A stretch of 64,000 nucleotides of DNA from Escherichia coli 042 (GCF_000027125.1 NC_017626.1); one strand, 5' to 3'; positions 38,468 to 44,972 are shown, numbered from the stretch's first letter. Notes: generated by a model not told the origin, from the letters alone. Program-made: numbers and translations.

Positions 38468-39556
38468 ATGTCACCGCAGAATAATCATCTGCAGCGTCCA
38501 CCTGCTGCTGTGTTATACGCCGATGAACTGGCAAAATTAAAACAAAATGATAACGCACCTTGCCCGCCCGGTTGGCAGTTAAGTTTGCCTGCGGCCCGTG
38601 CTTTTATCCTTGGCGACGAAGCGCAAAATATTAGCCGTAAAGTCGTGATCAGTCCCTCCGCTGTCGAACGCATGTTAGTCACTCTCGCTACCGGGCGCGG
38701 TTTGATGTTGGTGGGGGAACCTGGCACCGCAAAATCTCTCCTGTCTGAATTACTGGCAACCGCTATTAGCGGCGATGCCGGGTTAACCATCCAGGGCGGC
38801 GCATCTACCACTGAAGATCAAATCAAGTACGGCTGGAACTACGCTCTGCTTATCAACCATGGTCCGTCAACGGAAGCGCTGGTCCCTGCCCCGCTTTACC
38901 AGGGAATGCGCGACGGCAAAATCGTCCGTTTTGAAGAGATAACGCGTACACCGCTGGAAGTGCAAGACTGTCTGTTAGGTATGCTTTCTGACAGGGTGAT
39001 GACGGTGCCGGAACTCACTGGTGAAGCCAGTCAACTCTATGCGCGAGAAGGCTTTAATATTATTGCCACTGCCAATACCCGCGATCGCGGCGTCAATGAA
39101 ATGAGTGCTGCGCTAAAGCGTCGCTTCGATTTTGAAACTGTCTTTCCGATTATGGATTTCGCCTAGGAGCTGGAACTGGTCGCCAGTGCTTCTGCGCGTT
39201 TGTTGGCCCATAGCGGTATTCCGCATAAAGTGCCTGACGCGGTACTTGAGTTACTGGTACGCACCTTCCGCGATCTGCGTGCCAACGGCGAAAAGAAAAC
39301 GTCAATGGATACACTGACAGCGATTATGTCCACCGCTGAAGCCGTGAACGTGGCCCACGCTGTGGGCGTCCGCGCCTGGTTTTTAGCGAATCGCGCGGGG
39401 GAGCCAGCCGACCTGGTGGACTGTATTGCCGGAACCATCGTCAAAGATAACGAAGAAGATCGCGCACGTCTGCGCCGTTACTTCGAACAACGTGTCGCTA
39501 CACATAAAGAAGCTCACTGGCAGGCTTATTATCAAGCTCGCCACCGCCTGCCGTGA
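38468..39556 (+). pseudogene. yehL: MoxR-like AAA+ ATPase YehL, interrupted by an in-frame TAG at 39164-39166
   Basis: ATG 38468 with upstream AGGGA; Walker A GEPGTAKS; same reading frame continues after the TAG (..FPIMDFA*ELELVASASARLL..) to TGA at 39554-39556, giving 362 aa if read through. Confidence 0.7.
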
Positions 39557-39566
39557 GGAAATATGC

Positions 39567-41846: not shown

Positions 41847-42975
41847 ACTGAACGATCTTCTGATCACCCGTGAGCTACAACGCTGGCGATTAATTCTTGG
41901 CGAAGCGGCAGAAACGACCCTTTGTGGGCTGGATGACAACGCCCGGCAGATAGACCACGCGCTGGAGTGGCTGTATGGGCGCGATCCTGAACGGCTCCAG
42001 CGTGGTGAACGCTCTGGTGGATTAGGTGGCTCAAATCTCACCACTCCTGAGTGGATCAACAGTATTCACACGCTGTTTCCGCAACAGGTGATTGAGCGGC
42101 TGGAAAGCGATGCCGTACTGCGCTACGGCATTGAAGATGTGGTGACGAATCTCGACGTGCTGGAACGTATGCAGCCTTCTGAAAGCCTGCTACGCGCCGT
42201 TTTGCACACCAAACATCTGATGAATCCCGAAGTACTGGCTGCCGCCCGCCGGATAGTACGCCAGGTTGTTGAAGAAATTATGGCTCGACTGACAAAGGAA
42301 GTTCGTCAGGCTTTTTCTGGTGTCCGCGATCGCCGCCGTCGCTCATTTATTCCACTGGCGCGTAATTTCGATTTCAAAAGTACGCTGCGTGCCAACCTGC
42401 AACACTGGCATCCGCAACACAGCAAGTTGTATATCGAATCCCCCCGCTTTAACAGCCGTATTAAACGCCACAGTGAACAATGGCAACTGGTCTTACTGGT
42501 TGATCAAAGCGGATCGATGGTTGACTCGGTGATCCACTCAGCGGTGATGGCGGCCTGTTTATGGCAGTTACCCGGCATTCGTACCCATCTGGTGGCGTTT
42601 GACACCAGCGTCGTTGATCTCACCGCAGACGTTGCTGATCCGGTAGAGTTATTAATGAAAGTACAACTGGGCGGCGGGACCAATATCGCCAGTGCCGTGG
42701 AGTATGGTCGGCAACTTATTGAACAACCAGCGAAAAGCGTCATTATCCTCGTGAGCGATTTCTATGAAGGGGGTTCATCATCATTGCTGACGCATCAGGT
42801 GAAAAAGTGTGTCCAGAGCGGCGTCAAAGTGCTGGGACTGGCGGCGCTCGATAGCACCGCAACACCTTGCTATGACCGCGATATGGCCCAGGCGCTGGTT
42901 AATGTCGGCGCACAAATAGCTGCCATGACACCGGGCGAACTGGCGACCTGGCTTGCGGAGAATCTTCAGTCATGA
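41839..42975 (+). CDS. yehP: von Willebrand factor A (VWA) domain protein with MIDAS motif
   Basis: 378-aa ORF from MSELNDLL; DQSGS MIDAS motif; start overlaps yehM stop by 8 nt. Confidence 0.85.
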   Translation: MSELNDLLITRELQRWRLILGEAAETTLCGLDDNARQIDHALEWLYGRDPERLQRGERSGGLGGSNLTTPEWINSIHTLFPQQVIERLESDAVLRYGIEDVVTNLDVLERMQPSESLLRAVLHTKHLMNPEVLAAARRIVRQVVEEIMARLTKEVRQAFSGVRDRRRRSFIPLARNFDFKSTLRANLQHWHPQHSKLYIESPRFNSRIKRHSEQWQLVLLVDQSGSMVDSVIHSAVMAACLWQLPGIRTHLVAFDTSVVDLTADVADPVELLMKVQLGGGTNIASAVEYGRQLIEQPAKSVIILVSDFYEGGSSSLLTHQVKKCVQSGVKVLGLAALDSTATPCYDRDMAQALVNVGAQIAAMTPGELATWLAENLQS

Positions 42976-44972
42976 ATTCACTACGTCCGGAATTATTAGA
43001 ACTGACACCACAAGCTTTGACGGCGTTAAGCAATGCCGGTTTTGTTAAGCGCAGCCTTAAAGAACTGGAAAATGGCAACGTCCCGGAAATCAGCCATGAG
43101 AACGGCGCTTTAATCGCCACCTTCAGTGACGGTGTCCGCACCCAGCTGGCGAACGGTCAGGCACTGAAAGAGGCTCAGTGCAGCTGCGGGGCCAGCGGCA
43201 TGTGCCGTCATCGCGTGATGCTGGTGTTAAGTTATCAACGACTTTGTGCCAACGCCCAGCCTACGGAAAAGGAAGAAGAGTGGGATCCGGCAATCTGGCT
43301 GGAAGAACTGGCTACCCTGCCCGATGCCACCCGCAAACGCGCACAGGCGCTGGTCGCTAAAGGCATCACCATTGAGTTGTTCTGTACGCCGGGCGAAATT
43401 CCCTCTGCCCGCTTACCGATGAGCGATGTACGTTTTTATTCCCGCAGCAGCATTCGCTTCGCACGCTGTGATTGTATTGAAGGAACACTTTGCGAACATG
43501 TCGTACTGGCAGTACAGGCCTTTGTCCAGGCCAAAGCGCAGCAAGCGGAATTTACTCATTTAATCTGGCAGATGCGCAGCGAACACGTCACATCATCTGA
43601 CGATCCGTTTGCCAACGATGAGGGCGACGCGTGTCGTCAATATGTTCAGCAATTAAGCCAGGCGTTATGGCTTGGCGGCATCAGCCAGCCGCTTATTCAT
43701 TACGAGGCTGCTTTCAGCCGCGCGCAGCAAGCGGCGGAACGCTGCAACTGGCGCTGGGTAAGTGAATCACTACGACAGCTACGGGCAAGCGTTGATGCCT
43801 TCCACGCCCGCGCCAGTCACTATCATGCCGGAGAATGCTTACGTCAGCTTGCGGCATTAAACAGTCGATTAAATTGCGCACAAGAGATGGCGCGGCGCGA
43901 CAGTGTTGGTGAAGTTCCTCCTGTGCCGTGGCGCACGGTCGTTGGTGCTGGCATTGCCGGAGAAGCAAAGCTTGATCATCTGCGGCTGGTGTCTTTAGGT
44001 ATGCGTTGCTGGCAGGATATTGAGCAGTATGGTTTACGCATCTGGTTTACCGATCCCGACACCGGCAGTATTTTGCATCTTTCACGTAGTTGGCCGAGAA
44101 GCGAACAGGAAAACTCACCGGCAGCGACGCGTCGGCTTTTTAGCTTTCAGGCTGGCGCACTGGCTGGTGGGCAAATTGTTTCACAAGCAGCAAAACGCAG
44201 TGCCGATGGCGAGCTGCTGTTAGCTACCCGCAACCGCTTGAGTAGTGTTGTTCCACTGTCGCCAGACGCCTGGCAAATGTTGAGCGCGCCGTTGCGCCAG
44301 CCGGGCATTGTGGCTTTGCGGGAATATTTACGCCAGCGTCCCCCCGCCTGCATACGACCACTCAACCAGGTCGATAACTTATTTATTCTGCCGGTAGCGG
44401 AGTGTATTTCGCTTGGTTGGGATAGCAGCCGCCAGACACTGGATGCGCAGGTCATTAGCGGCGAAGGGGAAGATAATGTGCTGACGTTATCCCTTCCGGC
44501 ATCTGCCTGTTCTCCTTTTGCCGTTGAACGCATGGCGGCGCTTTTGCAACAAACAGACGACCCCGTGAGTCTGGTTTCTGGCTTTGTCAGCTTTGTAGAG
44601 GGGCAATTGACACTGGAACCACGGGTGATGATGACAAAAACTCGCGCCTGGGCGCTGGACGCAGAAACTGCGCCTGTGGCACCGCTACCTTCTGCCAGCG
44701 TCTTGCCTGTGCCGTCTACCGCTCATCAGTTGCTGATGCGCTGCCAGGCGTTACTTATTCAACTGCTCCATAACGGCTGGCGCTATCAGGAACAGAGTGC
44801 TATTGGTCAGGCAGAGTTGCTGGCGAATGACCTCTCCGCGGTGGGTTTTTATCGGCTGGCACATGTGTTGGCACAATTTCGTAATACAGAAAGCGAGGCA
44901 CGGGTAGAAGCAATGAATAACGGTGTTTTACTTTGCGAACAATTATTCCCCATGCTTCAGCAACAAGGATGA
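42972..44972 (+). CDS. yehQ: SWIM zinc-finger protein with two CxCx5CxH motifs
   Basis: 666-aa ORF; CSCGASGMCRH and CDCIEGTLCEH; ATGA start/stop overlap with yehP. Confidence 0.85.
   Translation: MNSLRPELLELTPQALTALSNAGFVKRSLKELENGNVPEISHENGALIATFSDGVRTQLANGQALKEAQCSCGASGMCRHRVMLVLSYQRLCANAQPTEKEEEWDPAIWLEELATLPDATRKRAQALVAKGITIELFCTPGEIPSARLPMSDVRFYSRSSIRFARCDCIEGTLCEHVVLAVQAFVQAKAQQAEFTHLIWQMRSEHVTSSDDPFANDEGDACRQYVQQLSQALWLGGISQPLIHYEAAFSRAQQAAERCNWRWVSESLRQLRASVDAFHARASHYHAGECLRQLAALNSRLNCAQEMARRDSVGEVPPVPWRTVVGAGIAGEAKLDHLRLVSLGMRCWQDIEQYGLRIWFTDPDTGSILHLSRSWPRSEQENSPAATRRLFSFQAGALAGGQIVSQAAKRSADGELLLATRNRLSSVVPLSPDAWQMLSAPLRQPGIVALREYLRQRPPACIRPLNQVDNLFILPVAECISLGWDSSRQTLDAQVISGEGEDNVLTLSLPASACSPFAVERMAALLQQTDDPVSLVSGFVSFVEGQLTLEPRVMMTKTRAWALDAETAPVAPLPSASVLPVPSTAHQLLMRCQALLIQLLHNGWRYQEQSAIGQAELLANDLSAVGFYRLAHVLAQFRNTESEARVEAMNNGVLLCEQLFPMLQQQG

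Follow-up and report, generated by a model that had tools for sequence, protein, structure and literature searches.

The yehLMPQ operon of Escherichia coli, carried on the 64-kb stretch of E. coli chromosome that we analyzed (the window), encodes a MoxR-type AAA+ ATPase, a DUF5682 protein, a CoxE-type VWA protein, and a protein with SWIM-type modules. We conclude with high confidence that these four proteins are part of a five-component cassette, composed of DUF4132, YehL, YehM, YehP, and YehQ. By analogy with known MoxR/VWA pairs, the cassette probably works in the MoxR-VWA remodeling mode. We give even chances to the fuller reading, in which a YehL-subfamily MoxR-VWA remodeling machine acts on or through the DUF4132 proteins, with nucleic acid as a possible cue. 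Earlier records cover the operon, its Pfam families, and the YehL subfamily. In the accessible literature, we found no definition of a five-component cassette in which DUF4132/WGR proteins are the constant partners and expand in tandem, no TraB/ChaN-like fold assigned to DUF5682, no OB-like barrels described for YehQ, and no recognition that the copies in K-12 and in the present strain are damaged. When that literature is searched with the DUF5682 and DUF4132 names and Pfam accessions, DUF4132 is mentioned and DUF5682 is not.

The composition of the cassette follows from its distribution. We mapped 84 loci with the E. coli YehL, YehM, YehP, YehQ, and DUF4132 proteins, using alignment coordinates from single-sequence phmmer searches. 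Roughly 74 of the 84 loci contain one to five DUF4132 genes followed by yehL, yehM, yehP, and yehQ, in one order and on one strand. These ordered loci come from Enterobacterales, Xanthomonadales, Burkholderiales, Myxococcota, many Actinomycetota, and one Thermoanaerobaculia genome, which places the cassette in the Proteobacteria, Myxococcota, Actinomycetota, and Acidobacteriota. Most exceptions reflect contig ends, DUF4132 genes lying downstream (two Burkholderia loci), or DUF4132 genes transcribed divergently (two myxobacterial loci). YehP is detected in about 80 of the 84 loci and, wherever YehL is found as well, lies on the same strand two genes downstream of it. The same five genes are recovered from independent gene calls and precomputed Pfam annotation in Serratia, in Variovorax, and on two metagenomic contigs, one of which carries a five-gene set that is only 31% identical in YehM. 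A preliminary description of this DNA had proposed an uncharacterized system of four genes. Those genes are indeed real, tightly packed, and co-conserved, but the unit comprises five genes, with DUF4132 included.

The family is widespread. A search of 1.84 billion representative proteins returned DUF5682 sequences that form 2,268 clusters at 50% identity, and a scan of one genome per species found DUF5682 in at least 564 species genomes. We also clustered 1,906 flanking open reading frames (ORFs) from about 80 loci and found no family that is common to the loci beyond genus-level synteny. The absence of any other conserved flanking family indicates that the cassette is self-contained.

Within the window, the four ORFs of the operon lie on the plus strand where the preliminary description had placed them (Table 1). 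Their junctions are also as it reported, with a gap of 10 nucleotides (nt) between yehL and yehM, an overlap of 8 nt between yehM and yehP, and an overlap of 4 nt (ATGA) between yehP and yehQ. Similar spacing recurs in about 80 homologous loci from four phyla, where the median of the implied start-stop distance is 0 nt (L-M), −16 nt (M-P), and −7 nt (P-Q), and gaps of 30 nt or less are found at each of these junctions in 70 to 73 loci. The gap between DUF4132 and YehL has a median of 44 nt. Because the coupling is conserved in so many loci from four phyla, the tight packing of yehLMPQ is not a matter of chance. The G+C content of the operon (0.53-0.57) is higher than that of its flanks.

The literature recognizes seven MoxR subfamilies, one of which has YehL as its type member (PMC3893208). 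Two features of that subfamily are present here, namely the core motifs and a neighboring gene for a VWA protein that bears a metal ion-dependent adhesion site (MIDAS). The protein matches Pfam AAA_5 (E 2.6e-34), with weaker matches to GvpN, to MadB, and, in the Walker A region alone, to Pfam bpMoxR (E 0.0024). The Walker A motif named in the preliminary description is present (GEPGTAKS, residues 83-90). Walker A, Walker B, sensor 1, the arginine finger, and sensor 2 are all invariant among 79 homologs, as is a STAEAVN motif. By sequence, the closest solved relatives in the PDB are the AAA_5 modules of Midasin (E 7e-10) and a Cytophaga MoxR protein, and the PDB sequence searches found no member of the YehL subfamily with a solved structure. 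No function has been assigned to the subfamily either.

The copy of yehL in the window is a pseudogene. Codon 233 is an in-frame TAG (Q233*, 39164-39166), which reads CAG in strain A10, the nearest complete genome (100.0% identity over 6.7 kb). The TAG is one of very few differences from A10 over this distance, and the 61-mer that surrounds it has no exact match among 5,426 complete E. coli genomes; it could be a sequencing error of the source assembly. As written, the codon cuts YehL before the lid domain and sensor 2 and stops translation 390 nt short of the yehM start. With this truncation of the ATPase and the frameshift in one DUF4132 paralog, the strain is expected to lack an active machine.

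The preliminary description could name no motif in YehM, a verdict that no longer stands. Profile search places the protein in DUF5682 (E 4.9e-98), and its structure model is confident, with a mean predicted local distance difference test (pLDDT) score of 92.5. In the model, approximately residues 1 to 215 adopt what appears to be a TraB/ChaN/erythromycin-esterase-like α/β fold, and the remaining 540 or so residues resemble HEAT-type solenoids. Among 59 sequences, G8xxH11, E35, R175/E176, and G199xxH202 are invariant. The signature of TIKI, TraB, ChaN, and erythromycin esterase consists of two GxxH motifs together with a conserved glutamate and arginine at the active site. The invariant residues of YehM are collinear with the GxxH, Glu, Arg, and GxxH of YbaP, the E. 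coli TraB protein, at similar spacing, a correspondence of sequence order and spacing.

Several comparisons weigh against this assignment of the YehM fold. A Foldseek search of the PDB returned non-significant solenoid matches only, and hhalign of YehM against YbaP alone or against the YbaP family profile gave non-significant probabilities (Prob 0.2-0.3); the short segments that hhalign did align are the regions of the GxxH and Glu motifs. YehM has no Pfam TraB match, and neither Pfam, HMMER, nor hhalign detected similarity to the TraB superfamily. With both Foldseek and profile-profile comparison non-significant, we regard the fold assignment as only moderately secure.

YehP matches Pfam VWA_CoxE (E 1.7e-71), with the VWA domain at its C-terminal end, and it shows a weak match to the cobaltochelatase VWA. 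The MIDAS sequence reported earlier, DQSGS, is found at residues 222 to 226, and the DxSxS motif, the threonine of GGGT, and the aspartate of SDF are conserved among 78 homologs. Sequence and profile searches of the PDB gave no match for YehM, for YehQ, or for YehP alone. Natural fusions of DUF5682 with VWA occur in two distant representatives (P0229 and P0266), and they argue that YehM and YehP act as one adaptor in the manner of CbbO or NorD. A separate observation concerns the translation of yehP. The sequence GTGGAGTATGGTCGGC (42697-42712) is reported to promote +1 ribosomal frameshifting in reporter constructs (FSscan, PMC2790909). It is present in yehP of the window, where the shifted product would be 75 amino acids (aa) shorter, with the truncation reaching into the VWA domain.

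YehQ carries both of the CxCx5CxH motifs previously noted, at C70/C72/C78/H80 and C166/C168/C174/H176. The Pfam SWIM matches are weak (E 1e-3 and 0.2), and the CxCxnCxH zinc-binding signature of the SWIM family is present. One of the two fingers is invariant among homologs and the other is lineage-specific. The model further predicts two OB-like β-barrels between the helical bundles of the protein (Table 1).

The fifth component is represented by three consecutive DUF4132 genes. The preliminary description had regarded this array as decaying paralogs adjacent to the operon. Decay is indeed evident in the frameshifted third gene, but the conserved gene order shows that the array belongs to the system itself. 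Paralog 1, which is annotated as DUF4132 in strain A10, has an N-terminal WGR domain (E 1.1e-18), a helical variable middle, and the DUF4132 domain (E 6.5e-50). Paralogs 1 and 2 share 70% identity across the WGR region and 69-72% over the C-terminal third, against 24-39% across the middle. In phmmer comparisons, DUF4132 proteins from other phyla match paralog 2 best. Paralog 3 (yehI) has the DUF4132 domain (residues 924-1108, E 1.5e-46) and no WGR. Its frameshift (33287-33376) is shared with strain A10, where the gene is annotated as "frameshifted"; the K-12 YehI is intact at 1210 aa.

Across the family, conservation is high over the C-terminal 420 or so residues of DUF4132, where numerous Asp, Glu, His, Arg, and Lys positions are invariant. 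A DUF4132 profile compared with the PDB matches the WGR domain only (the WGR of PARP3 and the Bacteroides protein 2ra8) and no enzyme family, and a search with the C-terminus returned mostly fragments and no new domain architectures. WGR occurs together with DUF4132 in Serratia, in Variovorax, and in the locus with 31% identity; many actinomycete paralogs are without WGR.

Table 1. Features of the yeh region, with positions counted from the first nucleotide of the window
Feature	Position	Strand	Assignment and basis
LexA-box-like site AACTGGATAAAATTACAGGG	25679-25698	+	Located 7 nt upstream of the start codon of DUF4132 paralog 1
DUF4132 paralog 1 (molR/yehF-yehH equivalent), 1265 aa	25706-29503	+	Pfam WGR 5-69, DUF4132 999-1182
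DUF4132 paralog 2, 1253 aa	29516-33277	+	48% identical overall to paralog 1
DUF4132 paralog 3 (yehI), frameshifted near 5' end	33287-36918 (open frame 33376-36918)	+	Pfam DUF4132
yehK, 101 aa	36979-37284	+	Escherichia only (phmmer: E. coli and E. whittamii loci)
Identical 29-aa ZorO-type toxin ORFs (MDTLTQKLTVLIAVLELLVALLRLIDLLK)	37338-37427, 37946-38035	-	
OrzO-P antitoxin RNAs	37673-37746, 38281-38356	+	Rfam, 101 and 92 bits
yehL, pseudogene here	38468-39556	+	MoxR-type AAA+ ATPase, type member of the YehL subfamily; Pfam AAA_5, motifs
yehM	39567-41846	+	DUF5682; modeled TraB/ChaN/EreA-like α/β domain (~1-215), then long α-helical solenoid
yehP	41839-42975	+	CoxE-type VWA protein, MIDAS intact; Pfam VWA_CoxE, motif conservation
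yehQ	42972-44972	+	Two SWIM-type modules, helical bundle, two predicted OB-like β-barrels (~330-560), C-terminal helical bundle

The mechanism that we propose for the cassette is drawn by analogy from CbbQ-CbbO, NorQ-NorD, RavA-ViaA, and Rea1. YehP, held on a YehM scaffold, would grip an acidic residue of a partner protein through its MIDAS, and an ATP-driven YehL hexamer would exert a pull that remodels this partner. The likeliest candidates for the partner role are the DUF4132 proteins, whose near-invariant C-terminal module may be the docking or working part, with the variable middle and N-terminus, multiplied in tandem, as the part that would provide specificity. The WGR domain, the OB-like barrels, and the SWIM modules point to DNA or RNA ends or single strands as a conceivable cue or substrate, and the hydrolase-fold domain of YehM could contribute a processing or output activity. 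For the link to nucleic acid as such, we estimate somewhat less than an even chance. A sharper version strikes us as quite improbable, namely that the cassette represents a nucleic-acid-triggered, MoxR-VWA-gated class in which interchangeable WGR/DUF4132 proteins sense DNA ends or single strands arising from damage or from an invader, and YehL, remodeling them through the MIDAS of YehP, licenses a hydrolytic output supplied by either the TraB-like domain of YehM or the conserved C-terminus of DUF4132. If this version were true, the cassette would rank as a fifth kind among MoxR-vWA conflict or stress systems and would reside in the E. coli core genome; the class may have been overlooked because K-12 has a damaged copy under H-NS silencing.

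A possible connection to DNA damage comes from the LexA-box-like site upstream of the first DUF4132 gene. The site, AACTGGATAAAATTACAGGG, has the CTG-N10-CAG form and agrees with the consensus at 13 of 20 positions, and the window contains two sites of this kind against 0.48 expected. The strict pattern CTGT-N8-ACAG has no match within the window. Cassettes of other taxa show no conservation of this site in their upstream regions, which makes it a weak, E. coli-specific hint. A second weak and independent hint comes from a Deinococcus preprint. It notes an earlier description of MolR as a member of the LexA regulon, with which the site is consistent, and reports that one DUF4132 gene and one WGR gene are derepressed on depletion of DdrO, with the molybdate-metabolism genes unchanged under the same conditions.

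The state of the locus in E. coli bears on whether the cassette has a current function at all. An alternative to a working machine is that yehLMPQ in E. coli, and above all in the present strain, is a silenced, slowly decaying, horizontally acquired remnant, the packing of which was inherited and not maintained. Lesions of the kind that such a remnant would show are found in several lineages. In addition to the private nonsense codon in yehL and the frameshift in yehI of the present strain, K-12 MG1655 (locus L089, 2475-16945) retains yehF as a 274-aa WGR fragment and yehH as a pseudogene, and its YehQ ends at residue 614 of 666, without the last 52 residues. In the successful sequence type 131 (ST131) sublineage L1a, a resistance transposon sits in the DUF4132 region (PMC9334617). 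In K-12, yehL and yehM, which adjoin an H-NS site, rise only in an hns/stpA mutant (PMC3686432), and an Escherichia-specific insert with yehK and zor-orz separates the DUF4132 genes from yehL. Against decay stand the ratios of nonsynonymous to synonymous substitution rates (dN/dS) measured against Escherichia whittamii, which are 0.02 for yehL, 0.05 for yehP, 0.08 for yehQ, and 0.10 for yehM, with similar values for the four genes against Klebsiella and Erwinia; the DUF4132 paralogs give 0.22-0.23. At least 80% of the length of the operon is kept in 5,202 of 5,426 E. coli genomes, at one chromosomal site (at least 96%). The lesions differ between lineages and look recent, and the yehL TAG is unique. 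A functionless remnant would describe the locus in the present strain and perhaps in laboratory strains of E. coli. It does not agree with the dN/dS values, and for the E. coli locus in general we consider it somewhat unlikely. What the locus represents is a horizontally mobile cassette under long-term purifying selection, which in E. coli is mostly silent and occasionally lost. The yehF fragment, the yehH pseudogene, the truncated YehQ, and H-NS silencing may have rendered K-12 screens uninformative, and the K-12 lesions may explain the lack of informative K-12 phenotypes.

Mobility also raises the question of defense. The cassette could be an anti-phage or anti-mobile-element system, with the MoxR-VWA pair as an ATP-dependent threshold switch, the tandem, variable WGR/DUF4132 proteins as sensors of the invader, and either the hydrolase-fold domain of YehM or the DUF4132 C-terminus as the effector. 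Its patchy spread, rich in filamentous actinomycetes and myxobacteria, is like that of the MoxR-vWA ternary conflict systems (PMC7159879), and copies are located on a 77-kb Iodobacter plasmid, on rhizobial megaplasmids, and on Streptomyces megaplasmids. Tandem expansion of DUF4132 recurs in unrelated lineages, and the DUF4132 genes evolve 2-10 times faster than yehL, yehM, yehP, and yehQ. The G+C content above that of the flanks, the silencing by H-NS in K-12, and the proximity to zor-orz in Escherichia would also suit such a role. These points are offset by the strong purifying selection, with no sign of hypervariability, and by the survey of MoxR-vWA conflict systems (PMC7159879), which makes no mention of SWIM, WGR, YehL, or TraB. 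YehP has no variable C-terminal effector extension, and YehL, YehM, YehP, YehQ, YehI, and YehK have no match in PADLOC-DB 2.0 at E ≤ 0.01. The annotated neighbors in five loci include no defense genes, and no defense or mobility family recurs in the clustered flanks. A tblastn search against phages found no genuine phage with the cassette, which is essentially absent from them. The preliminary description had considered the setting typical of accessory or defense-type loci; the lack of a PADLOC match, the lack of a recurring defense family, and the near-universal presence of the operon at a fixed site in E. coli speak against that view of the context. We judge a defense role unlikely.

Least probable, and in our estimate very unlikely, is a chaperone dedicated to maturation, comparable to CoxD-CoxE, NorQ-NorD, CbbQ-CbbO, or the chelatases, that inserts a metal or cofactor into a client enzyme or reactivates it: all characterized non-conflict MoxR-VWA pairs act in this way (PMC3893208, PMC7159879), YehP belongs to VWA_CoxE with its weak cobaltochelatase match, YehL weakly matches GvpN and MadB, ChaN, a fold relative of YehM, binds heme, and the old name molR (molybdate metabolism regulator) would fit, but no gene for a client enzyme or cofactor pathway is conserved beside the cassette in about 80 loci, its sole constant neighbors are DUF4132 proteins that match no enzyme family, and the molybdate link is an old name, the molybdate genes having been unchanged in the Deinococcus preprint.

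Between the DUF4132 genes and yehL in the window lie yehK and, in a 1.2-kb stretch of low G+C content downstream of it, zor-orz. The preliminary description had recognized a type I toxin-antitoxin tandem at this position, and zor-orz bears this out, with two OrzO-P RNAs found by Rfam and two identical toxin ORFs (MDTLTQKLTVLIAVLELLVALLRLIDLLK). Each zor-orz unit (37338-38356) has divergent promoters of the form TTGCAA-N16/17-TATAAT. Both yehK and zor-orz are found in Escherichia only, zor-orz is absent from K-12, and together they resemble an insertion by which the DUF4132 genes became separated from yehL. We considered yehK as a sixth component of the cassette and rejected it, because it does not occur outside Escherichia and bears no relation to the small ORF that Variovorax has in its place. 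Some close E. coli relatives (e.g., NZ_CP080260.1, 3692736-3700032) match the 6.7-kb query in two pieces that span about 7.3 kb. These genomes have about 600 extra bases within 38300-45000, possibly a further zor-orz unit upstream of yehL.

Other loci show local peculiarities. In seven of them, from Xanthomonadales and Comamonadaceae (L009, L015, L021, L022, L023, L027, and L029), rpoD, the gene for the housekeeping sigma factor, lies directly 3' of yehQ on the same strand, at a distance of about 200 nt; we considered rpoD as a functional partner and judged the arrangement to be local synteny. In Salinispora cortesiana (L083, 3157-15494), a partial second cassette with VWA-like and YehL-like genes lies directly upstream of a complete one, which suggests a tandem duplication of the whole system. 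In another locus (L087, GCA_050186575.1, 7689-12939), a DUF5682 protein of 979 aa is accompanied by an AAA_5 gene on the opposite strand, with an FHA-domain gene between them, and the end of the contig falls inside the DUF5682 gene. PHROGs contains families near-identical to each yeh protein of the window (25706-44972), namely phrog_20839, 28101, 36602, 30700, 33984, 31592, 29006, and 36295. Given that tblastn finds no phage that bears the cassette, these families probably represent chromosomal DNA that prophage calls had included.

E. coli has only two MoxR ATPases; YehL is one of them, and a whole MoxR subfamily is named after it. The unit worth studying is the set of five genes, not four. 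The Walker B motif of YehL, the MIDAS residues of YehP, H11, E35, and H202 of YehM, and the SWIM1 cysteines of YehQ are targets for point mutation. If either the nucleic-acid link or the defense role is true, the cassette would extend the MoxR-VWA machines by a new type that is widespread among soil actinomycetes, myxobacteria, and enterobacteria.

Among the closest known systems are the MoxR/VWA pairs CbbQ-CbbO, NorQ-NorD, RavA-ViaA, CoxD-CoxE, and BchI-BchD, with which the cassette shares an AAA_5 ATPase and a translationally coupled MIDAS VWA protein. CbbO and NorD, as large adaptors with a C-terminal VWA domain, resemble the YehM-YehP fusions. Unlike these pairs, the cassette has no client enzyme nearby, and its DUF4132/WGR, DUF5682, and SWIM-OB proteins have no counterpart there. 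The MoxR-vWA ternary conflict systems (Kaur et al. 2020, PMC7159879) also possess a MoxR-vWA core, a CoxE-type vWA N-terminus, and extra obligatory components; they too are common in actinomycetes and myxobacteria and have a variable partner with a constant docking part. Their third components, however, are VMAP, iSTAND, or β-propeller proteins, and SWIM, WGR, YehL, and TraB do not appear in that paper. YehP in turn has no C-terminal effector domains, and the cassette is core in E. coli. In contrast to the TIKI/TraB/PrgY/GumN proteins, ChaN, and erythromycin esterase, the YehM domain is joined to a solenoid some 540 residues long. The WGR of PARP and of MolR-type WGR proteins is matched by the N-terminal WGR of DUF4132 paralogs 1 and 2, but the DUF4132 proteins have no PARP catalytic domain and paralog 3 has no WGR. 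Rea1/Midasin likewise combines an AAA_5 ring with a MIDAS domain that grips an acidic residue and pulls off assembly factors. It differs in being a single eukaryotic polypeptide with six fused AAA modules that acts on the pre-60S ribosome, whereas nothing hints that YehLMPQ acts on ribosomes.

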